From positions 1 through 38,969 of the forward strand of contig JBGPYM010000003.1 of NCBI GenBank assembly GCA_041493205.1: a stretch of 38,969 bases of DNA, written 5' to 3'. Below the pieces are notes generated by a model. That model did not search any database. It was not told the origin of the DNA and was given only the letters and a program-made list of their open reading frames with translations. Shown piece by piece: positions 20,809 through 37,686 of this stretch (within the stretch, counting starts at the first letter, position 1; every line of letters starts with the position of its first letter). A program made the translations under genes and the position numbers. This DNA comes from Bacteroidota bacterium. Its GTDB lineage: Bacteria; Bacteroidota; Ignavibacteria; UBA10030; UBA6906.

Positions 20809-21267
20809 TCACTTCATGATGAGCGTCGGGCTTACCTCCACGATCGATGCGATGGAGTTTGCGACGAGGCAGTGTTTCTCCGCCTCGCGGAGGGTTGCAT
20901 GGACATCGGTCTCCGCGACCGAACCTGCCACCACGATCGTTGGGAAGATCACGATCCGGGTAAAGCGGTAGTCTCCGTCCACATATTCCAGAACACCGTT
21001 CGCATGACTGTTGTACGCAATGACCGGGATCTGCTTCTGGGATGCAAACGAGAGGAATGTGGCCATATGGCAGACTTCCACAGCCCCCACGAACATATCT
21101 TCGGGAGTCCATACTCCCGATTCGCCACGGAACTCGGGCGGGCTCGAAATGCGGAGCGTCGGCTTACCATCGGAGACGATCGTGCCCGATTTTCCTTCGG
21201 TCCATGAAGTGCTCGTCTTATAGGTAAACGACTTGTGCTTGACGCGAGGTTGCTGTGCAGTTTCCAT
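20809..21267 (-). CDS. OsmC/Ohr family protein
   Basis: SSPPEFRG...WTPEDMFVGAVEVC and EKHCLVANSI, the two conserved Cys of OsmC-like proteins. Confidence 0.88.
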   Translation of the reverse strand: METAQQPRVKHKSFTYKTSTSWTEGKSGTIVSDGKPTLRISSPPEFRGESGVWTPEDMFVGAVEVCHMATFLSFASQKQIPVIAYNSHANGVLEYVDGDYRFTRIVIFPTIVVAGSVAETDVHATLREAEKHCLVANSIASIVEVSPTLIMK

Positions 21268-21319: not shown

Positions 21320-21343
21320 CACCGGCGGGGACGCCGGTGCTAC
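21320..21343 (-). repeat. GTAG-family REP element
   Basis: Minus strand GTAG-CACCGGCG-TCCC-CGCCGGTG, 3 bp after the LeuD-like stop codon. Confidence 0.85.
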
Positions 21344-21346
21344 TAC

Positions 21347-21835
21347 CTATGGTTGAACAAGGCGCCGGCGCGTGTAGAGTATCAGACCGCCCGCGTCGAG
21401 AATCTCCTGGCGTGCAGCGGGAAGCTCGACACACTGATACGACTTCCCCGCGGTCACGTTGACAACCTCCCGATCCGTTAAACGTATCTCGTCCCCCACC
21501 GCGGCGGTGAAGCCGGGGGCCGTGGCCAGCCGGAGGCCGAGGTTGATCGCATTCTGCATGAAAATGCGGGCGAAACTCCAGGCGATGATGGTGAGCTCAT
21601 GTCCCTTGAGCGCAGAGACCGCCTGCTCGCGCGAGGACCCGCAGCCGAAATTGTTCCCCGCCGCGATGATACTCCCCTGCGGCAGGGTCCTGGACCGGAG
21701 TGCTGCATTGACCTCGGCCATGTCGGCAAACGCCCACTGGGGAGTCTCGGACGGCAGAACCGTCGCCATGTAACGTCCCGGATAAATGACGTCCGTCGAA
21801 ATATCGTCACCGAGAGTGAGAATGACTGCAGGCAT
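21347..21835 (-). CDS. LeuD/LysU/HacB-like aconitase-family small subunit
   Basis: GDDISTDVIYPGRY, AGNNFGCGSSREQA, SFARIFMQNAINLG, ILDAGGL. Start ATG 21835 with GGAGG RBS. Confidence 0.9.
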   Translation of the reverse strand: MPAVILTLGDDISTDVIYPGRYMATVLPSETPQWAFADMAEVNAALRSRTLPQGSIIAAGNNFGCGSSREQAVSALKGHELTIIAWSFARIFMQNAINLGLRLATAPGFTAAVGDEIRLTDREVVNVTAGKSYQCVELPAARQEILDAGGLILYTRRRLVQP

Positions 21836-21836
21836 G

Positions 21837-23129
21837 TCAGCGTCCTCCTTTCCGGGGATCGGCAATAACGCCGGCGAGGGCGGATGCCGCGGCAACTGCG
21901 GGAGAGCAGAGGAACACCCGGGCATTGGGGTTCCCCATGCGTCCCTTAAAGTTCCTGTTTGTCGTCGAGAGTGCGGTCTCACCGTCCCCCAGGGCCCCTT
22001 CATGGACACCGAGGCACGGCCCACACCCCGGGTTCATGACCACGGCGCCGGCCGCCATGAAATCGGCGATGTATCCTTTTTCCAGGGCCTGGCGGTAGAT
22101 CTTCCCCGACGCGGGAAACACCAACATACGCGTGGCGGGAGCGACCGACCGGCCGCGCACGATGCCCGCCGCGACCTCCAGATCATCCAGTCTGCCGTTC
22201 GTGCACGAACCGATGACGACCTGCTGGATTTCGGTCCCTGCGACCGCCGCCACAGATTTCACGTTGTCCACCGTATGGGGGCACGCGATCTGGGGTTCCA
22301 GCGCAGAGACGTCGATGGCAACCGTCCTTTCGTATGCCGCGTCGGCATCGGGAACGACCGGCCGCAGCACATCGCGGACACCTGCCTCCTGCTGCAGGTA
22401 CCGGGCCGTTTCCTCATCAGCCGGCACGATGCCTGAAGTAGCCCCGGCTTCCACCGCCATATTGCAGAGGACGAGCCGGCCCGACGTGTTCATCCGCCTG
22501 ATGGTGTCGCCATGAAATTCAATGACCTTGAAATTCGCGCCCTGTGCCCCGATGGTACCGATCAGATGGAGAATCAGGTCCTTCGGCCCGACCATCGGAG
22601 GAAACATTCCCGTCACGACGACTTTAATGGTTCCGGGAACTTCGACATTCACTGCAGCGCCGAGCGACCAAACGCTGGCCATTTCGGTCGCCCCGATACC
22701 GAAAGCAAACGCACCGAGCGCGCCATGGCTGGTCGTGTGGGAATCGGTCCCCACCACCACCGCGCCCGGCCTCACGTATCCGCTTTCGGGGAGGATCTGG
22801 TGGCAGATGCCGCCGACGTCTCCGCGGATATCGTGAAACTTCTGAATGGCGTGACGGGTGACGAACTCGCGGACCTTTTTCTGGTTGCCCGCGGTTTTCG
22901 CAGACTCCGCGGGCACGCGGTGATCGAAGATGATCGCGACCTTCGAGGGATCCCAGATCCGGGGTTCGAGCCCGGTCCCCTCGAATATCTCGAGAAATTG
23001 ATTCACCACGAGCGCCGCATTCTCATGCGACATCGCCAGGTCGACGCGCGGCTCCAGCACCTCTCCCGCCTGCGACGACGCCCTGCCGCTTGCGCGCGCA
23101 AGGATCTTCTCAACGACCGTCATTCCCAT
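21837..23129 (-). CDS. LeuC/LysT/HacA-like aconitase-family large subunit [4Fe-4S]
   Basis: MGMTVVEKILA, FDH, GICHQ, GTDSHT, IGSCTNGR, PGCGPCLG, STTNRNFKGRMG. Confidence 0.92.
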   Translation of the reverse strand: MGMTVVEKILARASGRASSQAGEVLEPRVDLAMSHENAALVVNQFLEIFEGTGLEPRIWDPSKVAIIFDHRVPAESAKTAGNQKKVREFVTRHAIQKFHDIRGDVGGICHQILPESGYVRPGAVVVGTDSHTTSHGALGAFAFGIGATEMASVWSLGAAVNVEVPGTIKVVVTGMFPPMVGPKDLILHLIGTIGAQGANFKVIEFHGDTIRRMNTSGRLVLCNMAVEAGATSGIVPADEETARYLQQEAGVRDVLRPVVPDADAAYERTVAIDVSALEPQIACPHTVDNVKSVAAVAGTEIQQVVIGSCTNGRLDDLEVAAGIVRGRSVAPATRMLVFPASGKIYRQALEKGYIADFMAAGAVVMNPGCGPCLGVHEGALGDGETALSTTNRNFKGRMGNPNARVFLCSPAVAAASALAGVIADPRKGGR

Positions 23130-23130
23130 G

Positions 23131-24348
23131 TCAGATCACCCCGGTTTCTTTGAGACTCTGGATTTCCGCGTCACTGTACCCGATGCTTCCCAGGACGGCG
23201 CATGAATGCTCTCCCAGCTGCGGCGGAGGTCCCGTTACCGCACCCGGCGTTTTCGAGAATTTCGCCGTGAGGTTGAACAGAGGGAGATCGCCGATGCCGT
23301 CAACGCGTGTGGTTCCAAATGTGTTACGATGTTCCACCTGCGGCTGCCGGACGGCCTCGGGAAGCGACAGAATGGCCCCGGCAGGTACTTCCCGCGCGTT
23401 CAGCACGTCAACCCACTCCGCTGTGTTTTTGAGCATCAGCTTCGCCTCCAGGAGCGGGGTGAGCGCACGGCGGTTCTTCTTCCGGACGTCACGCTCCTTG
23501 AACCTCGCATCGTCCTTCAGCTCAGGAAGTCCGAGCGCGTCCGCGACAGCTTCCCACTGTTCCTGTTTGTTCGCCGCAATATTGATAAACCCGTCCTTCG
23601 TCCTGAAGACACCTGATGGCGCAGCGGTGAAGTTATCATTCCCCATCAACACCGGTTCCTGTCCCCCGATCATGAAGTTGGCGACAACCCACCCCATGAG
23701 CGGCATGATCGAATCCAGGAGTGCCACATCGATGAACTGCCCTTCGCCCGTCCGTTCCCTGTGGTACAGGGCTGCCATGATCGCAAAGGCAGCGTTCAGC
23801 CCTCCCACCGTATCGCAGACCGGGAATCCCGCGCGGAGGGGAGCCGTGTGGTCATCGCCATTGATCGACATTTCGCCGCTCAGCCCCTGGATGATCTGGT
23901 CATACGCAGGTTTGAGCGCGTCGGGCCCCGTCTGGCCGAACCCCGAGATCGCGCAATACACAAGGTGGGGATTGCGTGCGGCGAGCGATTCATAGGAGAG
24001 TCCGAGCCGTTTCATGACATCGGGGCGGAAGTTTTCCACCACGACATCCGCCGTTGCCGCAAGGCGGAGGAACACTTCTTTCCCTGCCGGAGACTTCAGG
24101 TTGAGCGTCAGCGATTTCTTGTTTGCGTTCTGCGCAAGATAGCTTGTCCCCATCAGCCGCCGGTTGTACTCCGGCACGCAGCCGAGCTTGCGCGCCAGAT
24201 CGCCGCCGGCAGGATTTTCAATTTTTATGACTTCCGCGCCCAGGAGTGCCAGGTGCAACGTGGCGAAGGGCCCGGAGAGGACATTTGTCAGATCGAGGAC
24301 GCGGATCCCCGCGAGGAGAGCCGTCCTCTGTGGGCGTGAGTCAGGCAT
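23131..24348 (-). CDS. Family III CoA-transferase (CaiB/BaiF)
   Basis: LAGIRVLDLT, LGAEVIKIE, NANKKSLTLNLK, DVVVENFRP, ISGFGQTGP, catalytic Asp in GFPVCD, PPQLGEH. Start ATG 24348. Confidence 0.93.
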   Translation of the reverse strand: MPDSRPQRTALLAGIRVLDLTNVLSGPFATLHLALLGAEVIKIENPAGGDLARKLGCVPEYNRRLMGTSYLAQNANKKSLTLNLKSPAGKEVFLRLAATADVVVENFRPDVMKRLGLSYESLAARNPHLVYCAISGFGQTGPDALKPAYDQIIQGLSGEMSINGDDHTAPLRAGFPVCDTVGGLNAAFAIMAALYHRERTGEGQFIDVALLDSIMPLMGWVVANFMIGGQEPVLMGNDNFTAAPSGVFRTKDGFINIAANKQEQWEAVADALGLPELKDDARFKERDVRKKNRRALTPLLEAKLMLKNTAEWVDVLNAREVPAGAILSLPEAVRQPQVEHRNTFGTTRVDGIGDLPLFNLTAKFSKTPGAVTGPPPQLGEHSCAVLGSIGYSDAEIQSLKETGVI

Positions 24349-25261
24349 GGAGTGCTTCCGCTTCCGGAATGGAGCCTGTTCTGTAGATAAGTCCGGGGAG
24401 TTCTCTGCCGAAGTGACCGGACACCGCACCGGCGAGCGTTGTGAGGCCGTCGAGCCGGACATCCCTGCGAATCCCCATGTGCTGCAGCATATGGACGAGA
24501 TCCTCCGTGCAGACGTTGCCTCCTGCAATCTTCGTAAAGGGGCATCCGCCGAGACCGCCGACCGAACATTCCAGTGATACCACCCCCGCCCGCATTGCGG
24601 CGAACGTGTTTGCCAGCCCCATACCGTACGTATTGTGAAAGTGGCAGGCGAGTTCAGCTTCGGGGCTCAGAGTCTTGATTTCATTGAACAACCGTTCCAC
24701 GCGATCAGGTGTTGCGTGTCCGGCGGTATCCGCCAGGCTGATGCGGGTGAGGCCGGCGTCGATGTAGCTGCGCACGATCCGCAGAACATCCTCCGGGGGA
24801 ACCGGCCCTTCAAACCCGCAGCCGAATGCGGACTGGACCGACACCTGGACAGCGTACCCGGCGCCGGCCGCCTGGCGCGCCATGGCGATGATTCGTCCTG
24901 TCGCTTCCGCGACGGGCATACCGGTATTCTTTCTGCTGTGTGTTTCGCTTGCCGACACTCCCATACAGAAGAGTCCGACGCCACACGCGAGGCCGCGTTC
25001 GAGCCCCTTTTCATTGAGCACGAGGCCGGAGAGGGTGACGTCCGCCGGTACCTCGCCGGTTGCGCGGAGCTGCCGAAACAGTTCGTCGGTGTCGGCCATC
25101 TGCGGGATTTTTGCCGGGTGTACAAAGGAGCCCACCTGGACCACATCCACGCCGGTCCTGACCAGGCGCATGAGCCATTCGAGCTTCACCGCGGTCGGGA
25201 CGATCTGATATTCCATCTGCAGACCGTCGCGCAGGCAGACATCGTGGAGAATGATCTTCAT
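24341..25261 (-). CDS. HMG-CoA lyase-like (DRE-TIM) acyl-CoA lyase
   Basis: DVCLRDGLQ, GSFVHP..IPQMAD, SASETHSRKN, AFGCGFEG, LADTAG, HFHNTYG, GGLGGCPF, GNVCTED. Start ATG 25261. Confidence 0.9.
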   Translation of the reverse strand: MKIILHDVCLRDGLQMEYQIVPTAVKLEWLMRLVRTGVDVVQVGSFVHPAKIPQMADTDELFRQLRATGEVPADVTLSGLVLNEKGLERGLACGVGLFCMGVSASETHSRKNTGMPVAEATGRIIAMARQAAGAGYAVQVSVQSAFGCGFEGPVPPEDVLRIVRSYIDAGLTRISLADTAGHATPDRVERLFNEIKTLSPEAELACHFHNTYGMGLANTFAAMRAGVVSLECSVGGLGGCPFTKIAGGNVCTEDLVHMLQHMGIRRDVRLDGLTTLAGAVSGHFGRELPGLIYRTGSIPEAEALHA

Positions 25262-25274
25262 GGCCGTTGCCGTC

Positions 25275-26399
25275 TCACTTCCGTATGGCAGCTGCAATTG
25301 CGCGGGCGCAGTCGAGCGTGGTGGCGCACCCCCCCATGTCGTACGTCCTGACCTTCCCCTCGCGGATGACGGCCGCGGTGGCCTCGTCGATCTGCTTCCC
25401 CTTGCCGGTCTCGCCGAGCCAGTCGAGCATCATCTTCGCCGCCAGGATTGTCGCAATGGGATTCACCTTGTACTGGCCGGCGTACTTGGGGGCTGAGCCG
25501 TGCGACGGTTCGAAGACCGCCAGTTTTTTCCCGATGTTTCCGGAACAGGCGAAACCGAGGCCCCCGACCATCTGTGCGGCGAGATCGGAGATGATATCCC
25601 CATAGAGATTGGGGGCCACCAGCACGTCATAGCTCATCGGATTCTTGAGGAGCCACATGCAGATCGCGTCGACATTTGCCTCGTCCATGGCGATGCCGGG
25701 AAACTCTTTTGCGACCCGTTTCGCCTCTTCCAGGAAGAGGCCGTCGGTTGCGCGGACCACATTGGCTTTATGGACCACCGTCACCTTTTTTCGACCGTTG
25801 TCGCGGGCGAATTCAAACGCCGCGCGGACAATCCTTTCGGATCCCCGCTTCGTATTCACTTTGCAGGAGACCGCGTACTGATCGCCGGCGAGGTCTTTGA
25901 ACGCCGCGAACGGCTTCGAAAGCTGTGCCAGGACGGCAGCGAGCTCGCGCGGGACCGGATTGAATTCCACGCCTGCGTACAGGTCTTCGGTATTCTCACG
26001 GAAAACGACGAGGTCGATCCCCTCCTTGAAATTGAGCGGGTTTCCCGGATAGGCCCGGCACGGGCGGAGGCAGGTATAGAGGTCGAACACCTGCCGCATG
26101 CGGACGATCGGCGACCGGTAGACGAGTCCTTTGCCTTTGAGAGCGGGAATGAGCTCCGCCTCGGCCGCGCTGACCGGCTTGGATGTGATGGCACCAAACA
26201 TGGCCGCATCGACTCTTCGGAGAAGGTCGATCGTGCGGGCGGGAAAGGCATCGCCTTCGCTCCTCCAGAACTCCCAGCCGATATCCCCGTGGATGTACTC
26301 GGCCTCCAGGCCTACGGCGTCCAGGACGATCCGGGTGGCTTCCATCACTTCGGTGCCGACGCCGTCGCCGGGCAGCCATGCAATCTTATAGGCACTCAT
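25275..26399 (-). CDS. Beta-decarboxylating dehydrogenase (homoisocitrate/isocitrate/isopropylmalate family), probably NADP-preferring
   Basis: LPGDGVGTEV, RSPIVRMRQ, FRENTEDLY, VHKANV, NLYGDIISD, FEPSHGSAPKYAG, NPIATIL. Confidence 0.92.
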   Translation of the reverse strand: MSAYKIAWLPGDGVGTEVMEATRIVLDAVGLEAEYIHGDIGWEFWRSEGDAFPARTIDLLRRVDAAMFGAITSKPVSAAEAELIPALKGKGLVYRSPIVRMRQVFDLYTCLRPCRAYPGNPLNFKEGIDLVVFRENTEDLYAGVEFNPVPRELAAVLAQLSKPFAAFKDLAGDQYAVSCKVNTKRGSERIVRAAFEFARDNGRKKVTVVHKANVVRATDGLFLEEAKRVAKEFPGIAMDEANVDAICMWLLKNPMSYDVLVAPNLYGDIISDLAAQMVGGLGFACSGNIGKKLAVFEPSHGSAPKYAGQYKVNPIATILAAKMMLDWLGETGKGKQIDEATAAVIREGKVRTYDMGGCATTLDCARAIAAAIRK

Positions 26400-26497: not shown

Positions 26498-26749
26498 TCA
26501 GTCCGCGATCCCGGTTTCCAGGTCCTTCTGGATCGTCAGCTCCTCAAGCTCCTTGCGCAGCGTATCCGCGTGTCCCTGTTCCATGTCCGCGAGGGACATC
26601 AGGACGCGCCGCGTGTGCACATTGCCGGTCATGGCCGCGGCGCGGCGGTAATAGTCGCGCGCATCCTCCTCGTCCGCAATTGCGAGCTCGAGGACATCCT
26701 GAATGGACATTGCGCTCCAGGCAAGGTCGTCGTGACGAACGTGAGGCAT
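26498..26749 (-). CDS. Small ferritin/rubrerythrin-like half-domain protein (83 aa)
   Basis: LELAIADEEDARDYY...LADMEQGH is one E-x6-Y-x22-E-x2-H unit. Start ATG 26749. Confidence 0.8.
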   Translation of the reverse strand: MPHVRHDDLAWSAMSIQDVLELAIADEEDARDYYRRAAAMTGNVHTRRVLMSLADMEQGHADTLRKELEELTIQKDLETGIAD

Positions 26750-26750
26750 A

Positions 26751-26999
26751 TCAGGCAAAGCTGTCGTTGATCTTTTCCAGCGTGTCAAATTTTACGGTCA
26801 GGATTTCCCGTTTTTCACGGAGGACCGCAATGGCATGTTCCCGCTCGCTGACGAGCGATTCCAGGATCTCCCGCACATCGGGGTAGTCACAACTGGCGAG
26901 GTACTCCCGGTACATCCCGACCGCCTCCTGTTCCCTCCGTTCCGCCAGTTCCAGGGCGCTGCACAGCCCCTTACACGAATGCATGCAATTCGGATCCAT
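26751..26999 (-). CDS. Small ferritin-like half-domain protein with N-terminal CxxxCxxxC (82 aa)
   Basis: GAGGAGG RBS before ATG 26999; CMHSCKGLC, then LELAERREQEAVGMY...SLVSEREH. Confidence 0.7.
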   Translation of the reverse strand: MDPNCMHSCKGLCSALELAERREQEAVGMYREYLASCDYPDVREILESLVSEREHAIAVLREKREILTVKFDTLEKINDSFA

Positions 27000-27027: not shown

Positions 27028-27582
27028 TTACACGGCCGCTTCGACCGGTCCCGCGAGTTCCATTCCCCGCCGCAGCGCCGACTCATTCAGCGGGAGCAGG
27101 TGGTGGTAGCGCTCCGGAAGCACTTTTTTCAGCGCCGACATCACAGCGCCGGTTTCGACGACGTGCGACCGCTCGAGGAACGCCCCCAGGACGATCATGT
27201 TCATCGTTTTCGCGTTCTTCAGTTTCAGGGCCTCGACCACGGCGGCCACCGGAAGGATCTGGCAATCGGTCCTCGTCGGCGGGTGAATGATGCTGGTCGA
27301 TTCGTAGATGAGCAATCCGCCCGGACGAACGGCGGCCTCGAACTTATCGAGCGAGGGCTGATTCAGGGCGATGACCGTGTCGAATGTTGTGATTATCGGC
27401 GAGCTCACTTTCGCGTCGGAGACGATGACTATGCAATTCGCCGTGCCGCCGCGCATCTCGGGCCCGTATGACGGCATCCAGCTGATTTCCTTCCCTTCCA
27501 CCATACCGGCGTAGGCAAGGGTCATACCCATGGAGAGAACACCCTGGCCTCCGAATCCGGCGATGAGCAATTCATGTTTCAT
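27028..27582 (-). CDS. 2-oxoacid:ferredoxin oxidoreductase gamma subunit
   Basis: IAGFGGQGV, PSYGPEMRGGTANC, NMIVLGA. Confidence 0.93.
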   Translation of the reverse strand: MKHELLIAGFGGQGVLSMGMTLAYAGMVEGKEISWMPSYGPEMRGGTANCIVIVSDAKVSSPIITTFDTVIALNQPSLDKFEAAVRPGGLLIYESTSIIHPPTRTDCQILPVAAVVEALKLKNAKTMNMIVLGAFLERSHVVETGAVMSALKKVLPERYHHLLPLNESALRRGMELAGPVEAAV

Positions 27583-27594
27583 AACCCGGTCCTC

Positions 27595-28371
<777 letters not shown>

Positions 28372-28372
28372 G

Positions 28373-29467
28373 TCAGTACGCCTCCGCAGTCTGTGCAACG
28401 TCACGCCGGACTATCGCGTCGAGGGCCCGCACGACCTCATCGGGTGCGGGAATGATGCCGCCCATGCGTCCGTAGAAGCCGACCGGCACGCGGCCTTCGA
28501 CGGCCAGGCGGACATCTTCGATCATCTGTCCGGAATTCATTTCGACCACGAGGACGCCCTGGACCCGTTCCGCGAGTTCACGGATCGCGGTCGTGGGGAA
28601 CGGCCAGAGTGTCTGGGGACGGAGCAGGCCCGCCTTGATTCCCTGTGCGCGTGCAATCTCGACCGCACCTTTCGCGATGCGGGCGGCAAGCCCGTAGGCA
28701 ACGATCAGGTACTCGGCGTCGTCCGCGTGGAATTGCTCGCTCCGGGTCTCCGCCGCTGCAATGCGGCCGTACTTCTCCTGCAGGCGGATGTTGATCTGCT
28801 CCATCTTTTCCGGTTGAATGTGGAGCGAGGTAATGATGTTGCGTTCCCGTGATTTCGGCTTTCCGGTCGTGGCCCACGGCTTTGCGGGGATATGTTCGGC
28901 CGGGATGTACTCTTTGAACTGCACCTTCTCCATCATCTGTCCGAGGGCGCCGTCGGCAAGAATCATGACGGGATTGCGGTACCTGTCGGCGAGGTCGAAG
29001 GCGTCGTACACGAAATCCGCCATCTCCTGCACGCTTGCGGGCGCGAGCACGATCAGCCGGTAATCGCCGTGGCCTCCACCCTTGACGGCCTGGAAATAGT
29101 CTCCCTGCGACGGCTGGATGGTGCCAAGACCGGGTCCGCCCCTGTTGACGTTGACGACCAGGCAGGGGAGCTCGGCGGCGGCGATGTACGAGATGCCCTC
29201 CTGCATGAGGCTGACGCCCGGACTGGACGACGAGGTCATGACACGGGCGCCGGCGCCTGAGGCGCCGTACACCATGTTGATGGACGCCACCTCGCTCTCC
29301 GCCTGCAGGACGATCATTCCCCGGCGGCGGCCCTGGTCGGCCAGGTACTCGAGGATTTCCGACTGCGGCGTAATGGGGTATCCGAAATAGGCGTTGCAGC
29401 CGGCGCGGATTGCCGCTTCTGCCAGCGCCTCGTTCCCTTTCATCAGCTGGACATCGCTCACGGTCAA
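28373..29467 (-). CDS. vorB: 2-oxoacid:ferredoxin oxidoreductase alpha subunit (VorB-like)
   Basis: MKGNEALAEAAI, FGYPITPQSE, QAESEVAS, TSSSSPG, RGGPGLG, VVEMNSGQM. Confidence 0.9.
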   Translation of the reverse strand: MTVSDVQLMKGNEALAEAAIRAGCNAYFGYPITPQSEILEYLADQGRRRGMIVLQAESEVASINMVYGASGAGARVMTSSSSPGVSLMQEGISYIAAAELPCLVVNVNRGGPGLGTIQPSQGDYFQAVKGGGHGDYRLIVLAPASVQEMADFVYDAFDLADRYRNPVMILADGALGQMMEKVQFKEYIPAEHIPAKPWATTGKPKSRERNIITSLHIQPEKMEQINIRLQEKYGRIAAAETRSEQFHADDAEYLIVAYGLAARIAKGAVEIARAQGIKAGLLRPQTLWPFPTTAIRELAERVQGVLVVEMNSGQMIEDVRLAVEGRVPVGFYGRMGGIIPAPDEVVRALDAIVRRDVAQTAEAY

Positions 29468-29757
29468 TTCCTTTCGCTGTCGATGGAGACGGAGATATTT
29501 CCGGAAACATTACTGATGGTCGCGACCGGCACCTTCGCCTTTTTCTTGTTCTCGCGGTAGACGGTGATCACCGCGTCGGGACAGACGAGGGCGCAATTAA
29601 TGCACCCCGTACAATTATCCTTCACCAGCACCGCGTAGTGGTATCCCTGCGCGTTGAAGCCGGGGGCGAGCGCCAGGCTTTCCTGCGGGCAGGCATCAAT
29701 GCAGAGCTCGCATCCCTTACAGGTCTCTATCGCGAATGTTACGGATCCTTTCGCCAT
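29464..29757 (-). CDS. 2x[4Fe-4S] ferredoxin-like delta subunit of the oxidoreductase
   Basis: CKGCELCIDACP and CTGCINCALVCP. Confidence 0.92.
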   Translation of the reverse strand: MAKGSVTFAIETCKGCELCIDACPQESLALAPGFNAQGYHYAVLVKDNCTGCINCALVCPDAVITVYRENKKKAKVPVATISNVSGNISVSIDSERN

Positions 29758-29768
29758 CAGGCCGCTCC

Positions 29769-31103
29769 TTAGAGGTAGTGATGCTTTTTTGCAAATACTT
29801 CCAGGTCCGCGCGGAACTGCGGATGGGCGATGCTGATCAGCAGCTCCGCCCTCTGGCGCACGGACCTTCCGTGCAGGTTCACAACGCCGAATTCGGTTGC
29901 CACATAGTGGACATCGCCTTTGGATGTTGTCACCCCCGCCCCTTCCTGCAGCCGCGGCGCGATGCGGGAGATGGTCCCGGATTTGGCCGTCGAGGGGAGT
30001 GCGATGATGGGCTTGCCGCCTTCAGACCGTGCGGCGCCGCGGATGAAGTCGACCTGACCGCCGAACCCGCTGTAAAAGCGGTGGCCCATGGAATCGGCAC
30101 AGACCTGCCCCGTCAGATCGACCTCAATCGCCGAATTGAGCGCCACCATCCGGCTGTTGCGCGCGATGGTGAAGGGGTCGTTCGTGAACTGCGTCGGGCG
30201 GAACTCCATGGCAGGATTATTGTCGATGAAATCGAACAGCACCTGGGAGCCAAGGACAAAGGAGGTAACGATTTTTCCGGGGAGCAGGGTCTTGCGCATG
30301 TTGGTGATGACGCCGGACTCCACGAGCGGGATAATCCCGTCGGAAATCATTTCGGAATGAATCCCAAGATGTTTCCGGTCGCCCAGGAATTTGACCGTCG
30401 CGTCGGGGATGCGCCCGATTCCCAGCTGCAGCGTCGATCCATCCTCCACCAGTCCGGCCACGTTTTCACCGATCCGCCGGTACACCTCAAGTTCCTCGGG
30501 GGTCTCGTCGCCCTCCAGCTGGGGGAGTTCCTTGAGGGGGGTACTCACTTCGATGCAATAATCGATCTTGCTGATATGGATGAAGCTGTCGCCGAGGGTG
30601 CGCGGCATATTCGTGTTGACCTGCGCAACCACGATCTTGGCGACTTCGGCCGCCGCCTTCGTGCATTCCACGCCGACGCCGAAACTGCAGTAGCCGTGCT
30701 CATCAGGGGGAGACACCTGGATCAGGGCAACGTCCACGGGATATTCCCTGTTATACAGGAGAGCCGGGATTTCGGAGAGAAAGATCGGCGTAAAATCCGC
30801 GCGCCCCTCGTTGACCGCAGTACGGACATTTTTCCCGATGAAGAACGCGTTGTGCCGGAAGTGGCCGGCCATTTCGGGGCGGACGTACGCGGCCTCGCCG
30901 ACACCCAGCAGGTGGCACACTTCGACATCCCGCAGGTCCGCGTACCGTTCCACCATTGCATCCACGAGGACCTGCGGTACTGCGCAGCCCGGATGGATGT
31001 AGACACGGTCCCCCGACTGGATGACCGAGACTGCGTCGGCGGGGGATACGAATTTCCGTTCGTATTTCCGTTTGACCGTCGCAGAGATCGAGTTATAATG
31101 CAT
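29769..31103 (-). CDS. Acetyl-CoA hydrolase/transferase family (4-hydroxybutyrate CoA-transferase-like, family I)
   Basis: VSPPDEHGYCSFG, TLQLGIGRIP, LGIHSEM (catalytic Glu), EVDLTGQV, GFGGQVDF. AGGAG RBS before ATG 31103. Confidence 0.92.
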   Translation of the reverse strand: MHYNSISATVKRKYERKFVSPADAVSVIQSGDRVYIHPGCAVPQVLVDAMVERYADLRDVEVCHLLGVGEAAYVRPEMAGHFRHNAFFIGKNVRTAVNEGRADFTPIFLSEIPALLYNREYPVDVALIQVSPPDEHGYCSFGVGVECTKAAAEVAKIVVAQVNTNMPRTLGDSFIHISKIDYCIEVSTPLKELPQLEGDETPEELEVYRRIGENVAGLVEDGSTLQLGIGRIPDATVKFLGDRKHLGIHSEMISDGIIPLVESGVITNMRKTLLPGKIVTSFVLGSQVLFDFIDNNPAMEFRPTQFTNDPFTIARNSRMVALNSAIEVDLTGQVCADSMGHRFYSGFGGQVDFIRGAARSEGGKPIIALPSTAKSGTISRIAPRLQEGAGVTTSKGDVHYVATEFGVVNLHGRSVRQRAELLISIAHPQFRADLEVFAKKHHYL

Positions 31104-31131
31104 TGTCAACTCCTGAGAGAAACGTCAAGAT

Positions 31132-32457
31132 TCAATGTTGTGTCGCATCAATGGATGCTGCGAGATCCCGGATGATGTCTTCGGGCTTTTCCAGTCCGAT
31201 TGCCAGCCGGATCCCGCCCGGATCGAGTCCTTTTGCGATCTGTTCTTCCGGCGGGAATGCAGAATGCGTCATGGAGCCCGGGTGTTCGATGAGCGTGCGG
31301 ATGTTCCCCAGACTCACCGCCAGCGTAATGCAGTACGACGTGCGGGCGACGTGATTGATGAAGCACTCTGCGTGTTTCAGCGCGTCGGCGGGCTTTTCCC
31401 CCTTCATGACGAAGTAAATCATTGCGCCGGGGGCAAAATTGCCGTCATAGTCCACCATCTGCCGCCGGGCGAGCTCCTTCTGTGCGAACTGCGGCAGGCC
31501 GGGGTAGTGCACGCACGCGAGCTCCCGGCGGGTCGTCAGAAACTGTGCAACGGCCTGGGCGGTCTGCTGCATTTGCCGCATCCGGACTGCAAGCGTGGGG
31601 AGTCCCTGGACGAGCACCGGCCAGGCGCTCTTCGGCGAGAGGACGCCGCCGAAGTCCTTCCGGTAGAGCATGAGCCTGTCCCGGCTCCACTGGGGTCCGA
31701 TCACGACACCGCCGATGTCGGTCCCAAACCCTCCGATCGCCTTGGTAAGGGAGTGAACGACGAAGTCTATTCCGAGGGAGATCGGCCGCTGGCAGAACGG
31801 GGTGGCAAAGGTACTGTCCACCACCGTGTAGAGCTGTTCGTTTTCCCCGCGCGATTCGTTAATTTCACGCGCAATGTCCGCCACCGCTTTCAGGTCCGTC
31901 AACCGGAGGTTTGGATTGACGGGCGATTCCATATAGAGCACGCGCGTTTGCGGGGTGATCGACCGGCGCACCTCCTTCACATCGGTGAAGTCGATGAACC
32001 GCGCGTTGATCTTGAGCCGGGGGTACCAGTTGGTCAGGAGCGAGTAGGTGCAGCCGTAGATGGTCTTATGGGCGAGGATTTCGCTCCCGGCGCCGGTCAG
32101 GATGCCGAGAACACCGGCGATGGCGGCCATGCCGCTTGCAAACGAGACGGCGATTTCTCCCTGTTCCGCGAAGGCGAGATTCTCCTCAAGCATGTCCTTG
32201 TTGGGCTCGCCGAGCCGGTCATAGATGTAGATCGGCGCTTTTGCGGCGACCGTGAGTTCGGGACTCGAGTGCGCGAACTCGGCGAATCCCTGGGCGCCGC
32301 GGCCGGCGCTGTCGAGGCGGAAGGTCGCGGATGCGGAAATGGGGGGAAGCAGGTGATGGCTGTAATCCCACCGCGGATCGTTCATCTTTCCGTAGATCAG
32401 GTGCGATTCAGCGGAGTAGCCGTCTTCTTCGTTGGTCTTCGTCGTGTCGGTTGCCAT
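31132..32457 (-). CDS. megL: Methionine gamma-lyase-like PLP enzyme (Cys/Met metabolism family)
   Basis: YIYDRLGEP, FASGMAAI, IYGCT (the Cys is diagnostic of MGL versus YGGT in CGS/CGL), DSTFATP, HSLTK PLP lysine, AVSLG, HPGSMTHS. Start ATG 32457. Confidence 0.82.
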   Translation of the reverse strand: MATDTTKTNEEDGYSAESHLIYGKMNDPRWDYSHHLLPPISASATFRLDSAGRGAQGFAEFAHSSPELTVAAKAPIYIYDRLGEPNKDMLEENLAFAEQGEIAVSFASGMAAIAGVLGILTGAGSEILAHKTIYGCTYSLLTNWYPRLKINARFIDFTDVKEVRRSITPQTRVLYMESPVNPNLRLTDLKAVADIAREINESRGENEQLYTVVDSTFATPFCQRPISLGIDFVVHSLTKAIGGFGTDIGGVVIGPQWSRDRLMLYRKDFGGVLSPKSAWPVLVQGLPTLAVRMRQMQQTAQAVAQFLTTRRELACVHYPGLPQFAQKELARRQMVDYDGNFAPGAMIYFVMKGEKPADALKHAECFINHVARTSYCITLAVSLGNIRTLIEHPGSMTHSAFPPEEQIAKGLDPGGIRLAIGLEKPEDIIRDLAASIDATQH

Positions 32458-32492: not shown

Positions 32493-33554
32493 TCAGAGAA
32501 CTGTTCTCGTCCGGAGGACATCTTCCACGGGACGACGCGGCGTACGGGCGGGAGCAGCGAGTGAAAACCCAATACGCAGCAGGATTTGAGGCCAGGCGGA
32601 GAGCCCGAGCAGAGCGCGCAGTTGCACCCGGAGCTCCGGTACCTGTACGGGCATATTGAAATAACTGTGCTGCAGACCTTCCCGTGTCAGGGTCAGCAGC
32701 AATTTTTGCAGGAGCTGTCCTGCGTCCAGCCAGTGAGGTACCGTGTCTTCGCTCTGCAGGACGATGAGGCCGGGCGCCTCGATACAGAGATTCCTGTCGG
32801 CGGCGGACCGGATGACACTGACATCCAGCATCCGCGTGGTCCACTGTCCGAGGGCCGATGCCATGGTGCTGACGCCCAGCGCCGCCCCGGTGATGCCGTC
32901 CGGTTTCTTCGTCCAGTTGGGACGGACCCATTCGGCGCAATCGCCGCGAAAGGCGGGGTCTGCCAGCTGCATCCGGTCGGCCGCTTCCACAAGTTCTGCG
33001 ACCCCGGTATTGATTCTGCCATCGGAAGAGACATACACCCCGGCGAGTCCGTCTGTTTCCAGACCCCGTACGTGGCGGAGCAGCGATTCGGGCACGCGGG
33101 AGAGGAGGAACGGGTTGCGGTTGGTGTGCCGCCGGGGTATGGCTGTAAAGAGGGACATCAATGCCTCATCGCCGCCTGCGTCAGAGGAACGCGGGCTCAG
33201 GGAGAGGAAGGCCAGGGGCCGTTCGCTGTCGCCGCTCTCGTTGTAGCTTACCCGGCAGTCGAATCCAAACCGCTCGGCGGCCACGCGCAGGGTGAAGAGC
33301 GCCGTGCCGATGCTCATGAGCAGCTCGCGGTTTCCGGGGTCAACGACCGGCATACGCCGCGCATAGTCCGCATAGAGTTCGACGCCCTCGGGGGTAATCC
33401 CAAACCACCACGGCTGCGTGTTATGCGTCGAGGGGGCGAGGATCGCATAGCGCAGGAGAAATGCGAATTGCTCCTCCCGGGAGCCGTCGGCGGGATACTC
33501 ACGCTCGTCGACTGCATAGGGCGTGGTCATCGGATCAAAGCTGGAGCGTCCCAT
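32493..33554 (-). CDS. Acg-family FMN-binding nitroreductase-like protein
   Basis: YAILAPSTHNTQPWWF, DPGNRELLMSIG, IPRRHTNRNPF, WLDAGQLLQ, PQILLRIG, RTPRRP. Start 33554 (GGAGG) or 33611. Confidence 0.88.
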   Translation of the reverse strand: MGRSSFDPMTTPYAVDEREYPADGSREEQFAFLLRYAILAPSTHNTQPWWFGITPEGVELYADYARRMPVVDPGNRELLMSIGTALFTLRVAAERFGFDCRVSYNESGDSERPLAFLSLSPRSSDAGGDEALMSLFTAIPRRHTNRNPFLLSRVPESLLRHVRGLETDGLAGVYVSSDGRINTGVAELVEAADRMQLADPAFRGDCAEWVRPNWTKKPDGITGAALGVSTMASALGQWTTRMLDVSVIRSAADRNLCIEAPGLIVLQSEDTVPHWLDAGQLLQKLLLTLTREGLQHSYFNMPVQVPELRVQLRALLGLSAWPQILLRIGFSLAAPARTPRRPVEDVLRTRTVL

Positions 33555-33607
33555 GCGGCTTCCGTCCTCCCCGCCGATCTCAAGCCGTGTATTGTAGAGC
33601 ATCACAC

Positions 33608-33865
33608 TCATTTCTGGTCGTTACCGATTTGATCGGTGAGACACCGGATCGCGTCCACCGGACAATCTTCCATCGCTTCGAGCATGAATTCCTCTTCTTC
33701 GGCCGATTGCGGCTGGCGGGCAACAAAATAGGTGTTGGAGTCCTTCTGGAAATCGAAATTCTCCGGCGCCAGCGACGCGCAGTAGGCGCACCCGTCGCAT
33801 TCCTCCGTCGTGAAGTACTTTCCCGGCACGTTCCCCGGCAGTTTGATGGTATCTACACTTTCCAT
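33608..33865 (-). CDS. Single-cluster ferredoxin
   Basis: NVPGKYF...CDGCAYC...CPVDAI; GGAGG RBS within the end of ccmF. Confidence 0.88.
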   Translation of the reverse strand: MESVDTIKLPGNVPGKYFTTEECDGCAYCASLAPENFDFQKDSNTYFVARQPQSAEEEEFMLEAMEDCPVDAIRCLTDQIGNDQK

Positions 33866-35823
33866 TGCACCTCCTGTGTACGTTTGACTATGGCAAGAGC
33901 AAATCCGATGATCATCAGAACCATTCCACCCCAGAGGAGACTCATAAACGGTTTTATGCTCGCCTCCACCACCAGCCGTTCCGGCTGCGCCGGCGTGGCC
34001 TGGGCGGTCCGGAACCCTGACCCGCCCGACTCTCCACCGCCAAGCGCCTCCCCGTCCGCGGCAGCCTGTGCAGCTTCGAGACCAACCGGGGAGAGGTAAA
34101 AGTCGCGCGTAAAAAATGTCGCAATGTCGGGATTGCGCATCACTCCCTGCTCGCCTCCCGGAAACATGACGGGTGCGAGCGTGAACGACTCCCCGTCCCC
34201 TTCCACGCGGACGTGAAATTTGAACTTCCCGTCGGCGGTCGGCGCGAATCCGGTATACGTGAGGGTATGTCCCAGCGCTTCGCGCGGACGATTGAGCGGG
34301 AGCGTCACGTGCGCCCGCGATTCGAAACGGCCGCTCGCGATCATGCCCAGAAGGAAAATGGCCACGCCCGCGTGGGCCAGCTTTCCGCCGAGGAAGCGGG
34401 GGTCACCCCGGGCAATTCTGACGCCGATATCCACGTTGACGAAGAGCGCGAAGACCGACGCGAAGATGAGCGCGAGAGCGCCGGCATCCTCGACTCCCAG
34501 AATCGCCAGACTCGCAACGACGACAAACGACGCAAAGAGGCCGACTCTCGACCTTTGCAGGGTCGCTCCCCCGTCCTGTGTTTCCCATTGGGTATACAGG
34601 CTCAGTCCGATCAGGAGCCCCATCACAATCACGAGCGGGAGGTTGGTCGCGTTGTAGAACGACGGCTCGACGCGCAGGGCCGAGAAGATCGGTAGCGTTG
34701 TCCCGAAGGCAACGACCGCCGCACTGAGGATAAGGAGCATCGTCCCGGCCCCGAGGGAAGTCTCCCGGGAAAGCAGATGTCCCTCCGCAGGGTGCGGCCG
34801 GAGGTCCGCGCGGCGCGCGATCATGAGGCCCGCGCCGGCAACAGCGATAGCCCCGAGGGATCCGAGGAGGAGCCAGTAGGCTGCAGCCCCCGGATCCGTA
34901 AACGAGTGAACCGACGCGTCGCCGAGAATGCCGCTGCGTGTCAGAAACGTGCTGTAGATGACGAGAAAGAACGAGACCAGCGCGAGGGCGAAATTTGTCC
35001 GCATATATTTACCAGTGCGGAGCTGCGCGAGCATTGTGTGAAGGAGGGCGATCCCGGTGAGCCACGGCACCAGGGAGGAGTTCTCCACGGGATCCCACCC
35101 CCAGTACCCGCCCCAGCCAAGGACCCCATAGGCCCAGTAGGCACCGAGCATGATGCCGAGTCCGAGGACGGTTGTCCCGCCAAGGACCCACGGGAACGCC
35201 TGCGCGGGGAGAATGTCGTACCTCCGTTTCCAGAGCCCCGCGATCGCAAGGCTGAACGGCACGGCCATCGCAGCAAACCCGAGAAAGAGCACGGGCGGGT
35301 GGATGACCATCCAGAAATTCTGCAGCAGTGGATTCAGCCCGCGTCCTTCGGCCGGTATGGCAAGCGGCGCCTGCGGGAACATCTCCCAGACCGAGCGGAA
35401 GGGGGACTTCACTATGACAAAGGCAAGGAGGACCGTCTGGACTGTCATGTAGACCGCCATGACGGGTGCTTCGTTGCCGTGCCTTCGCGCGGCCGCCCGG
35501 AGGACGAGCGCGATCGCGCTTCCGCAGAGGGCCCAGAAAAGAAAGCTCCCTTCCTGTCCCGCATAGAAACTTGAAATCAGATACGCAAGCGGGAGGGCGC
35601 TGTCGCTGTAACTATAGACATACCCGTTTGAGAAATCGTGCCGGAGAAGGAGGACGAGGAGAAGGACGGAGGCGAACCCAACAACCACCACGGAGAGATA
35701 TAACAGTCGCCGCGGCCGGGCCGAGGATCCTGCCCGAGAGGAAGCCAGTCGGAAGTAGAGCAAGGCGGAGAGAGCCGCAGCGACCAGACTGAACCACACA
35801 CTCATATGTCCAAGAACAGACAT
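33853..35823 (-). CDS. ccmF: Cytochrome c heme lyase CcmF/NrfE family
   Basis: AGQEGSFLFW, GRGLNPLLQNFWMVIHPP, WWD domain WAYGVLGWGGYWGWDPVENSSLVPWL, FLTRSG..SVHSF. Confidence 0.94.
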   Translation of the reverse strand: MSVLGHMSVWFSLVAAALSALLYFRLASSRAGSSARPRRLLYLSVVVVGFASVLLLVLLLRHDFSNGYVYSYSDSALPLAYLISSFYAGQEGSFLFWALCGSAIALVLRAAARRHGNEAPVMAVYMTVQTVLLAFVIVKSPFRSVWEMFPQAPLAIPAEGRGLNPLLQNFWMVIHPPVLFLGFAAMAVPFSLAIAGLWKRRYDILPAQAFPWVLGGTTVLGLGIMLGAYWAYGVLGWGGYWGWDPVENSSLVPWLTGIALLHTMLAQLRTGKYMRTNFALALVSFFLVIYSTFLTRSGILGDASVHSFTDPGAAAYWLLLGSLGAIAVAGAGLMIARRADLRPHPAEGHLLSRETSLGAGTMLLILSAAVVAFGTTLPIFSALRVEPSFYNATNLPLVIVMGLLIGLSLYTQWETQDGGATLQRSRVGLFASFVVVASLAILGVEDAGALALIFASVFALFVNVDIGVRIARGDPRFLGGKLAHAGVAIFLLGMIASGRFESRAHVTLPLNRPREALGHTLTYTGFAPTADGKFKFHVRVEGDGESFTLAPVMFPGGEQGVMRNPDIATFFTRDFYLSPVGLEAAQAAADGEALGGGESGGSGFRTAQATPAQPERLVVEASIKPFMSLLWGGMVLMIIGFALAIVKRTQEVQWKV

Positions 35824-35858
35824 TGCTTCCTCCGATTATTTCGCCCGTACCAGACGGT

Positions 35859-35873
35859 TCAACATATGTGCCA
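35859..35873 (-). promoter_or_regulatory. Sigma54-like promoter of the ccmF operon
   Basis: Minus strand TGGCAC-ATATG-TTGA (GA instead of GC at -12), ~36 bp upstream of the ATG with a GGAGGA RBS in between. Confidence 0.65.
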
Positions 35874-35942
35874 CGAATACATGGGTTTTATGCGTGAAAA
35901 GGGGCGTGAAGGGGCCTCTTTTCCCTTTGCGAGAGCTCAATC

Positions 35943-35958
35943 TTCCAATCTCTGGGAA
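35943..35958. promoter_or_regulatory. Candidate enhancer (UAS) for a sigma54 activator
   Basis: TTCCAA-TCTC-TGGGAA; 13/16 identical to the hemN site, with the same 69-bp gap to TGGCAC. Confidence 0.6.
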
Positions 35959-36009
35959 TGGGTTGGCAGGAGTGAAAACGGCAGGATTTGGGGGAAATGG
36001 GGGGGGAGC

Positions 36010-36100
36010 CACCGGCAGGGACGCCGGTGCTACTAGCAAAAGACACGGGCGGGACGCCCGTGCCACTACCAAATGACACCGGCAGAGACGCCGGTGCTAC
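36010..36100 (-). repeat. Three tandem GTAG-family REP hairpins (period 33-34 bp)
   Basis: + strand CACCGGCAGGGACGCCGGTGCTAC (36010), CACGGGCGGGACGCCCGTGCCAC (36044), CACCGGCAGAGACGCCGGTGCTAC (36077). Confidence 0.85.
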
Positions 36101-36435: not shown

Positions 36436-36464
36436 CGCACAGTCTCCTTATGTATGCACAGTGA

Positions 36465-37678: not shown

Positions 37679-37686
37679 CTCTCTCA

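Follow-up and report, generated by a model that had tools for sequence, protein, structure and literature searches.

In the 38,969-nt stretch of DNA analysed here (hereafter the window; contig JBGPYM010000003.1 of assembly GCA_041493205.1, Bacteroidota bacterium, Ignavibacteria; UBA10030; UBA6906), the interval 21347-26399 of the minus strand is filled exactly by five open reading frames (ORFs), and these five genes probably form one self-contained, CoA-dependent module for the elongation or shortening of 2-oxoacids, which would conserve the thioester and hence be reversible. Judged from the enzyme families, the only chemistry that would use all five enzyme types is acetyl-CoA + 2-oxoacid <-> 2-alkylmalyl-CoA <-> 2-alkylmalate <-> 3-alkylmalate <-> longer 2-oxoacid + CO2. 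All five cassette proteins have Pfam support at E <= 4.4e-12, four of them at E < 1e-42, and the genes are as follows:

25275..26399, minus strand: NADP-type isocitrate dehydrogenase (IDH)-like beta-decarboxylating dehydrogenase, 374 aa (Pfam Iso_dh, 1.3e-87)
24341..25261, minus strand: acyl-CoA lyase of the hydroxymethylglutaryl-CoA (HMG-CoA) lyase family (DRE-TIM), 306 aa (Pfam HMGL-like, 8.3e-43)
23131..24348, minus strand: family III (CaiB/BaiF) CoA-transferase, 405 aa (Pfam CoA_transf_3, 1.2e-123)
21837..23129, minus strand: LeuC/HacA-type large subunit of an aconitase-family hydro-lyase, 430 aa (Pfam Aconitase, 1.8e-98)
21347..21835, minus strand: LeuD/HacB-type small subunit, 162 aa (Pfam Aconitase_C, 4.4e-12)

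In the order dehydrogenase-lyase-transferase-LeuC-LeuD, the intergenic distances are 13 nt, an 8-nt overlap, 1 nt and 1 nt, the overlap being that of the transferase start with the lyase stop, in the sequence ATGCCTGA. The tight coupling of the dehydrogenase, HMGL-like, family III CoA-transferase and LeuC/LeuD-like genes, noticed in a first-pass annotation of this DNA, was borne out by the ORFs and their spacing. By scanning one genome per species, at least 600 matching stretches were obtained, at least 504 of which encode a relative of the lyase, and the best 80 loci, all from metagenome bins, were kept. Partners were counted only at loci with enough flanking DNA and in the same order as in the window: the dehydrogenase was found 5′ of the lyase in 60 of 69 loci and the CoA-transferase 3′ of it in 69 of 71, while LeuC stood beside the lyase-transferase pair in 56 of 63 and LeuD was present in 54 of 61. 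Of the 57 loci long enough to hold all four partners, 49 have the complete set in this order, and the tblastn match ends of neighbouring cassette genes lie a median of 12-39 nt apart. This recurrence of one arrangement across related loci goes far beyond chance and, extending over about 10 phyla, agrees with the first-pass proposal that the five genes are conserved together as a unit. The phylum labels of the loci include Ignavibacteriota/Bacteroidota, Gemmatimonadota, Acidobacteriota, Myxococcota, Elusimicrobiota, Latescibacterota, Fibrobacterota, Chlorobiota and Pseudomonadota. The genes flanking the cassette vary (PhoH, diadenylate cyclase, Bat proteins, a histidine kinase, alkaline phosphatase, peptidases M1 and M20, histidine ammonia-lyase, a Nuo/Mrp subunit), and across the loci no conserved neighbour was found beyond lineage-specific genes for a 2-oxoacid:ferredoxin oxidoreductase (OFOR) and for methionine-gamma-lyase (MGL)-like, rubrerythrin-like and OsmC-like proteins. 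The remaining eight of the 57 loci mostly hold the lyase-transferase pair alone, and in all five lone-pair genomes searched (L036, L038, L046, L089 and L059) a cassette-type LeuC with 70-78% identity was found elsewhere in the genome.

The cassette is patchy within the class of the window, being present in 24 of 251 genomes, this one included, and in 5 of the 6 genomes of its family. In a FastTree tree of concatenated dehydrogenase, transferase and LeuC sequences from 44 loci plus the window, the phylum label has to change 17 times where 9 changes would be the least possible, and the branches are short (median end branch 0.13). This pattern agrees with the cassette having been transferred repeatedly as a whole, but wrongly labelled bins would give the same picture. 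Two loci, labelled Latescibacterota (L071) and Gemmatimonas sp. (L092), carry near-identical cassettes with end branches of 0.021 and 0.016 and have their flanking genes in common, which points to a very recent transfer or a mis-binned contig. No cassette-type LeuC was found on plasmids of cultured bacteria, all 42 matching records having <60% identity. In two Ignavibacteriaceae bins, a nucleotidyltransferase (MNT)/HepT-like RNase toxin-antitoxin pair lies between the CoA-transferase and LeuC (L040:6423-7047 and L052:7515-8139).

In the proposed route, all four steps of which are deduced from enzyme families, the HMGL-type lyase would interconvert acetyl-CoA plus a 2-oxoacid with 2-alkylmalyl-CoA, and the family III transferase would shift CoA between the latter and a free acid, probably succinate or acetate, to give free 2-alkylmalate. 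The LeuCD-like Fe-S hydro-lyase would then isomerise 2-alkylmalate to 3-alkylmalate, which the NADP-type dehydrogenase would interconvert with the next longer 2-oxoacid plus CO2. To our knowledge, all textbook routes of 2-oxoacid elongation (leucine, isoleucine via citramalate, lysine via aminoadipate, and coenzyme B) start with a synthase that hydrolyses the thioester, and are therefore one-way. The cassette has the types of isomerase and beta-decarboxylating dehydrogenase, and the carbon logic, of the canonical sets LeuA-LeuCD-LeuB, CimA-LeuCD-LeuB, homocitrate synthase-HacAB-homoisocitrate dehydrogenase (HICDH) and AksA-AksDE-AksF, but differs from these in having a lyase and a transferase for the condensing synthase, in its specificity loops, and in occurring also in genomes without any leucine or isoleucine synthesis. 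Since it holds no synthase and CoA would not be hydrolysed, every step could run backwards.

The lyase matched PF00682 with 147 bits (cut-off 29) and exceeded the cut-off of the HMG-CoA-lyase subfamily model NF004283 of NCBIfam (264 bits versus 246), whereas on the models of LeuA, CimA and homocitrate synthase it reached only 35-84 bits, with cut-offs of 414-950. As the sole DRE-TIM gene of the cassette thus scores far under the synthase cut-offs, the unit does lack a synthase, as had been proposed from the letters alone. Its motifs RDGLQ, HFHNTYG and GGLGGCPF align with the same motifs of the solved HMG-CoA lyases 1ydo, 6nds and 2cw6, the first of which is its best solved relative (E 2.7e-56), and we take the Arg-Asp, His-x-His and Cys-loop GGCP elements in them to be catalytic and metal-binding. 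This alignment, together with the NCBIfam scores, upholds the earlier assignment of GGLGGCPF as a signature of the lyase and not of the synthase type. Among 1.84 billion cluster representatives searched, the lyase falls in a small distinct clade with two full-length representatives at 65% and 53% identity; beyond this clade, full-length representatives have at most 44% identity and at most 239 bits, and the identity to other HMGL clusters is ~36-44%. In public annotation, the nearest clusters carry only the automatic name "hydroxymethylglutaryl-CoA lyase".

The transferase matches CoA_transf_3 (PF02515) over its full length (profile 1-366 of 366) and is the sole gene of this family in the genome bin. 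It stays under the cut-off of all NCBIfam equivalogs, and among solved chains it comes closest to 10uh and to human SUGCT, 9br6 (E about 1e-80). In Chloroflexus aurantiacus, reportedly in work of Friedmann and colleagues from 2006 and 2007, the gene of an HMGL-family (R)-citramalyl-CoA lyase adjoins that of a family III (R)-citramalate CoA-transferase. This pair (EC 4.1.3.46/2.8.3.20) resembles the cassette in family and adjacency, and the logic of interconverting 2-alkylmalate with acetyl-CoA and a 2-oxoacid while keeping the thioester is predicted to be the same; the cassette differs in joining such a pair to LeuCD-like and IDH-like genes in one operon. Among the NCBIfam matches of the cassette proteins there was no model for this pair. 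In citrate/citramalate lyases of the CitDEF type and in the citryl-CoA synthetase/lyase of Hydrogenobacter, a hydroxy acid is likewise activated by acyl transfer and then cleaved to an acetyl thioester plus a 2-oxoacid. The activation-then-cleavage logic would be common to these systems and the cassette, but theirs are unrelated families (CitE/CitF or citrate-synthase-like) with an ACP-bound or ATP-dependent mechanism, and they are not known to be linked to genes of the LeuCD or IDH type.

Among solved proteins, HMGCL/YngG and SUGCT are the closest to the lyase and the transferase. On one rival reading there is no single pathway: leucine or ketone-body catabolism would employ the lyase as an ordinary HMG-CoA lyase, acetoacetate or hydroxymethylglutarate would be activated by the transferase, and the LeuBCD-like genes would be merely adjacent. 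The subfamily score and the intact catalytic motifs of the lyase agree with this, as do the resemblance of the transferase to succinate-hydroxymethylglutarate CoA-transferase, the loci with the lyase-transferase pair alone, and the 3-oxoacid CoA-transferase genes found 5′ of the cassette in one Elusimicrobia locus (L067). We nevertheless consider it most improbable, given that the five-gene arrangement persists from phylum to phylum in changing surroundings, that a LeuC-type gene is present elsewhere in each of the split cases searched, and that the lyase stands in a clade apart from most HMGL proteins. Moreover, hydroxymethylglutarate is not a 2-hydroxy acid and therefore no substrate for an aconitase-type enzyme, so it could not feed the isomerase of the cassette.

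The LeuC-like subunit exceeded the cut-offs of the family models PRK00402 (545 bits; cut-off 385), hacA_fam (517; 386) and IPMI_arch (507; 410), and stayed under those of the equivalog models HacA_Meth and LEU2. The LeuD-like subunit reached 119.5 bits on LEUD_arch (cut-off 109), has the GSSRE motif (in GCGSSRE), and carries a loop GR[YF]MAT that was found in 53 of 53 orthologues. The aligned small-subunit loops read:

Cassette LeuD-like subunit: GRYMATV
Methanocaldococcus jannaschii isopropylmalate/citramalate isomerase (MJ1277, 3vba): ARYLVYT
M. jannaschii homoaconitase (MJ1271, 2pkp): GPYLRTT
Pyrococcus horikoshii LeuD (1v7l): GRYNLTK

Excerpts of PMC7308503 state that a five-residue region in this flexible loop decides substrate preference, and that the P. 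horikoshii small subunit can substitute for the homoaconitase small subunit in Thermus thermophilus. Because the cassette loop is neither the YLVY of isopropylmalate isomerase nor the YLRT of homoaconitase, neither assignment is justified; and in view of the swap described in those excerpts, the missing loop Arg speaks against a distal carboxylate on the substrate without excluding one.

The dehydrogenase was under the cut-off for all NCBIfam equivalogs, its top models being methanogen homoisocitrate dehydrogenases (334 bits). An IDH tied with the HICDH of T. thermophilus was its best solved relative (E about 1e-71); LeuB structures gave E 1e-40 to 1e-52, and the LeuB model TIGR00169 gave 195 bits (cut-off 353). 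Its substrate-helix motif is preceded by an insertion of ~14 aa, and SPIVR[ML]RQ was found in 57 of 57 orthologues, 56 of which have the complete YRSPIVRMRQ. In comparison with the paralogues of the same genome, the helices read:

Cassette dehydrogenase: YRSPIVRMRQ
Genome's own NADP-type IDH (C286): IRSINVALRQ
Genome's own second IDH-type gene (C135): FRSANVALRK
Genome's own LeuB (C59): EQGLLALRK

At the Ser-x-Asn site of IDH, the Asn of which presumably binds the substrate gamma-carboxylate, the cassette enzyme reads R-S-P-I (IDH 6ltf reads S-S-I-N), and the Asn position is Ile in all 57 orthologues. A Val is aligned to Arg85 of the T. thermophilus HICDH (1x0l/3asj), a position that we assume to serve in substrate recognition, the role reportedly described by Miyazaki in 2003, and an invariant Arg follows one position later. 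The Leu-Leu positions of LeuB hold Ile-Val, and the LeuB Glu is replaced by Arg. The signature SAPKYAGQ.KVNP, which we take to mark the NADP cofactor type, is common to the cassette dehydrogenase and the NADP-IDH of the genome (SAPKYAGQYKVNP aligned to SAPKYAGQDKVNP), the NAD-type paralogues reading SAPDI. Overall, the dehydrogenase appears IDH/HICDH-like in its backbone, with a gamma-site that has been remodelled and made partly hydrophobic.

The genes lying 5′ of the cassette are as follows:

31135..32400, minus strand: methionine-gamma-lyase-like pyridoxal-phosphate enzyme, start codon uncertain (MGL models 321 bits, under cut-off)
29772..31109, minus strand: acetyl-CoA hydrolase/transferase-family gene, butyryl-CoA:acetate CoA-transferase-like (TIGR03948, 309 bits; cut-off 675)
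27031..29757, minus strand: OFOR, four subunits
29757..29464, minus strand: OFOR delta
29467..28376, minus strand: OFOR alpha (555 bits to PRK07119, VorB subfamily; cut-off 399)
about 28404..27598, minus strand: OFOR beta
27582..27031, minus strand: OFOR gamma
26501..26788, minus strand: small rubrerythrin/ferritin-like gene between OFOR and cassette (PF02915, 3.2e-08)

The OFOR is a likely, though lineage-specific, partner of the cassette: at identities of at least 50%, it was found near the cassette in 14 of the 80 loci, and a distant OFOR lies directly 5′ of the cassette in three (L072, L081 and L091). The rubrerythrin-like gene keeps its place in Ignavibacteria-type loci, and the acetyl-CoA hydrolase/transferase-family gene occurs in only 3 of the 80. 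As to the MGL, to which the cassette had been linked in the first-pass annotation, the gene is indeed present in the window, but it is lineage-specific, standing 5′ of the cassette in 12 of the 80 loci. A nitroreductase-like gene with weak Pfam matches lies 5′ of the MGL-like gene (window 32496-33611; L014:973-2351) and is kept in 8 Ignavibacteria-type loci, in 4 of which a small 4Fe-4S ferredoxin gene stands beside it. A Ser/Thr-dehydratase-like gene was found near the cassette in L059.

With less than even confidence, we tentatively favour (R)-citramalate as the substrate, in which case the module would catalyse pyruvate + acetyl-CoA <-> 2-oxobutyrate + CO2. The only pair of HMGL-family lyase and family III transferase known to us as described acts on (R)-citramalate (EC 4.1.3.46 and 2.8.3.20), and (R)-citramalate is the isomer used by LeuCD and LeuB. 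The known binders of a distal carboxylate are absent from the LeuD-like loop and from the dehydrogenase, which we count for citramalate, as we do the MGL-like gene, which would make 2-oxobutyrate, and the Ser/Thr-dehydratase-like gene of L059. The module would then drain 2-oxobutyrate arising from threonine or methionine in bacteria that depend on amino acids, and might supply 2-oxobutyrate to those without CimA and IlvA. An excerpt of PMC8307300 names the two EC activities as a possible indirect route to (R)-citramalate.

Within the class, 61 of 251 genomes and 7 of the 24 carriers gave a LeuA-type match (one of 240 bits, the others of about 290 or higher), so that about three quarters of the sampled genomes are without a LeuA-type gene. 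The IlvA regulatory domain was over its cut-off in only 2 of the 251, carriers or not, and IlvA absence was therefore rejected as a sign of the role of the cassette. LeuA-positive genomes nearly always have a genuine CimA gene beside leuA (TIGR00977, 672-793 bits; cut-off 450), which was confirmed in 9 of the 15 genomes examined for it; with IlvA nearly absent, the class thus appears to make isoleucine by the citramalate route. Both CimA and IlvA are missing in 3 of the 7 LeuA-positive class carriers, namely G000, G206 (100% complete, 8 contigs) and G012, compared with about 3 of 54 LeuA-positive non-carriers that are without both a second LeuA-like gene and IlvA. Among the 9 KARI-positive carriers (KARI, ketol-acid reductoisomerase, IlvC) from other phyla, 4 likewise lack both CimA and the IlvA regulatory domain. 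These gaps, which complement the cassette in part, we count for citramalate as well.

Several observations weigh against citramalate. The complementarity with CimA and IlvA comprises small numbers of related genomes, and the CimA gap of G000 may be an unassembled one because its contig C59 ends about 0.7 kb 5′ of leuA. Genes of the methylmalonyl-CoA-mutase family were found in all 44 genomes tested, carriers and non-carriers alike, so a second sink for 2-oxobutyrate or propionyl-CoA is not obviously needed; replacement of the methylmalonyl-CoA route by the cassette accordingly found no support. Furthermore, the best NCBIfam and PDB neighbours of the cassette proteins are homoisocitrate and homoaconitate enzymes and a glutarate/HMG CoA-transferase, the dehydrogenase lies, by its matches, on the IDH/HICDH side of its family and not on that of LeuB, and the extra invariant Arg after the Arg85 site might bind a distal carboxylate. 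The P. horikoshii loop (YNLT) is without Arg as well, yet according to the excerpts cited above its subunit can replace that of homoaconitase, which keeps homoaconitate in play. Finally, genes for a class III aminotransferase and an aldehyde:ferredoxin oxidoreductase stand directly 3′ of the cassette in two Elusimicrobia loci (L067 and L068).

These enzyme neighbours and the Elusimicrobia loci speak for the same architecture acting on homocitrate, that is, 2-oxoadipate + CO2 <-> 2-oxoglutarate + acetyl-CoA via homoisocitrate, homocitrate and homocitryl-CoA, as do the LeuC-like score over the hacA_fam cut-off, the top dehydrogenase models with the tied T. thermophilus HICDH, the nearness of the transferase to succinate-glutarate and succinate-HMG CoA-transferases, and the invariant Arg adjoining the Arg85 position. 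It would amount to the front half of the aminoadipate pathway run backwards, for example in lysine breakdown, and the OFOR would turn 2-oxoglutarate into the succinyl-CoA needed by the transferase. We rate this version as unlikely, although worth keeping in view: the small-subunit loop has no Arg, the Arg85 position itself is Val, and the partial CimA/IlvA complementarity would be left unexplained. The aminotransferase of L067 and L068 scored higher as a gamma-aminobutyrate (GABA) transaminase (470 bits) than as a 2-aminoadipate transaminase (369 bits), under every cut-off, and no saccharopine genes were seen within 8 kb in L067. The saccharopine-dehydrogenase family (PF03435) was over its cut-off in 188 of the 251 class genomes and gave no match at all in 5 of the 24 class carriers (G010, G017, G022, G076 and G163). 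A requirement of the cassette for saccharopine dehydrogenase was thus not seen, the family missing from at least five carriers.

On isopropylmalate, the same architecture would reversibly interconvert 2-oxoisocaproate, with its leucine skeleton, and 2-oxoisovalerate (valine skeleton) + acetyl-CoA. In bacteria without de novo synthesis, it could keep branched-chain keto acids, or the acyl-CoA primers for iso-fatty acids, in balance. The hydrophobic Ile-Val at the LeuB Leu-Leu positions and the Arg-free small-subunit loop would suit it, the OFOR alpha subunit is over the cut-off of the VorB (2-oxoisovalerate) subfamily in the window and in L033, and most carriers are without branched-chain amino acid synthesis. 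However, nothing in the cassette is specific to an isopropyl group, the dehydrogenase is IDH-like and not LeuB-like, VorB is a subfamily label and not a tested activity, and the OFOR is near the cassette in a minority of loci only; we therefore hold this version to be quite unlikely.

The state of branched-chain synthesis in the carriers was as follows. Seventeen of the 24 class carriers have no LeuA-type match, and 13 carriers encode no PF00682 protein apart from the cassette lyase. KARI was found in none of 5 LeuA-less class carriers (98-100% complete), the control detecting it in 14 of 14 reference genomes, and it was absent from 20 of 29 carriers of other phyla, that is, from 25 of the 34 carriers tested overall. 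Leucine or isoleucine biosynthesis as the general role of the cassette was hence rejected. In a sample of 91 Gemmatimonadetes-class genomes (G256 and G281-G370), including one unpublished genome (G298) with no match over the cut-off, KARI was over its cut-off in 29 and the cassette was present in one, the centre genome; the low KARI count suggests widespread branched-chain amino acid auxotrophy, or bin incompleteness. As the absence of KARI from carriers is thus about the same as the lineage background, we claim no enrichment, only that the cassette is common where branched-chain synthesis is missing.

The genome of the window itself is differently equipped. The window is contig C24 of a 3.2-Mb genome bin of 381 contigs (92.9% complete), which also holds canonical leuA-leuC-leuB (C59), citrate synthase (C362), aconitase together with an NADP-type IDH (C286), and another IDH-type gene (C135). 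The cassette is therefore an extra set and no replacement of leuABCD, and the first-pass suggestion that its lyase and transferase stand in place of LeuA does not hold for this genome, where the proposed check for canonical leu and citrate synthase genes found both.

ATP-free citrate cleavage had also been put forward at first pass. A citryl-CoA lyase, a succinyl-CoA:citrate CoA-transferase, a LeuCD-type aconitase and an NADP-IDH would, together with the OFOR, form an ATP-free branch of citrate cleavage or synthesis in the (reductive) tricarboxylic acid cycle ((r)TCA). The dehydrogenase keeps the Arg-Ser of the IDH type and the NADP signature, an OFOR neighbour is present, and in one carrier (G078; 100% complete, 9 contigs) neither citrate synthase nor any aconitase-family gene other than the cassette LeuC was found, its second Iso_dh match being weak. 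Still, this candidate is disfavoured and we judge it very unlikely, since the Asn of IDH is Ile in every orthologue, the small-subunit loop lacks an Arg, citrate synthase was found in 22 of the 24 carriers, and the genome of the window has its own citrate synthase, aconitase and two IDH-type genes. The three genomes in which no citrate synthase was found (G017, G078 and G179; 99-100% complete) belong to one genus, and one of them is a non-carrier. Replacement of citrate synthase by the cassette was likewise rejected on the count of 22 of 24. Whatever probability all these readings leave falls to another substrate or to a broad substrate range.

The module may run in either direction. Reductive carboxylation, in which a 2-oxoacid is shortened by addition of CO2 and release of acetyl-CoA, would agree with the NADP-type signature and with the dependence of the OFOR on ferredoxin, and the forward direction with the gaps in CimA and IlvA; if reversible, the module could serve both ways. 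In one Elusimicrobiales locus, a 185-aa ORF directly 5′ of the dehydrogenase (L067:6151-6708) has a weak match to beta-carbonic anhydrase (E 3.3e-4, under cut-off), which, if real, would fit the carboxylating direction. Run reductively with the OFOR, the module might even be an undescribed route of CO2 and propionate assimilation, similar to a segment of the rTCA cycle but one carbon shorter, a role that we consider improbable: propionyl-CoA + CO2 would give 2-oxobutyrate, which with CO2 and NADPH would give 3-methylmalate, and this would pass through citramalate and citramalyl-CoA to pyruvate + acetyl-CoA. A synthetic cycle designed in the preprint 10.1101/2025.11.21.689712, as described in an excerpt of it, leads from 2-oxobutyrate carboxylation via citramalate and citramalyl-CoA to pyruvate + acetyl-CoA. 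The passage from 2-oxobutyrate to these products via citramalyl-CoA is thus the same, whereas that route is theoretical and, in the excerpt, uses a hypothetical carboxylase, methylaspartate and mesaconate, with no IDH-type step or LeuCD isomerase. Should the reductive run prove true, nature would have its own counterpart to a cycle that has until now been only a paper design.

Two features lie immediately 3′ of the cassette:

21320..21339, minus strand: terminator-like hairpin directly 3′ of the LeuD-like gene (8 pairs, 7 of them G-C; tail GCTCTTTCTC)
20812..21267, minus strand: OsmC-like peroxiredoxin-family gene, at the same place in 8 loci

A scan of the region for promoters and terminators gave site counts not above those of shuffled sequence, so that the hairpin at the LeuD end is a matter of shape only, and the intergenic RNA 5′ of the dehydrogenase gene folded no better than its shuffles. 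The OsmC-like gene is followed further 3′ by HemN, LacI-type, Por-secretion-tail and TonB-receptor genes. At the other end of the window, a CcmF gene and two genes for multihaem c-type cytochromes (33856-38904, the cytochromes at 36.5-38.9 kb), the latter with Geobacter-type CxxxxCH and MtrC-like domains, hint that this sediment bacterium may pass electrons to metals or out of the cell. The DNA of the window is present in sediment-metagenome runs, 12 of which contain at least half of the sampled words, and no RNA run carrying it was found among the sequencing runs listed.

In full-text searches of the literature, no paper describing the five-gene cassette was found, nor any occurrence of "homocitryl-CoA" or "isopropylmalyl-CoA" in the papers listed; the texts that came closest were PMC8307300, a review, and the preprint on the synthetic cycle. 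The enzyme families and the carbon logic are known; the synthase-free, thioester-conserving architecture, as read from the genes, would be new. The genes are now annotated automatically as HMG-CoA lyase, IDH and LeuCD. If the proposed module is true, it may offer a physiological context for the orphan citramalyl-CoA enzymes of Chloroflexus and would supply ready-made parts for engineered keto-acid or CO2-fixing pathways. Moreover, 2-oxoacid elongation would then also be run in nature reversibly, with the energy of the thioester kept, and the reconstruction of amino-acid and organic-acid turnover would change for abundant uncultured bacteria of soil and sediment.

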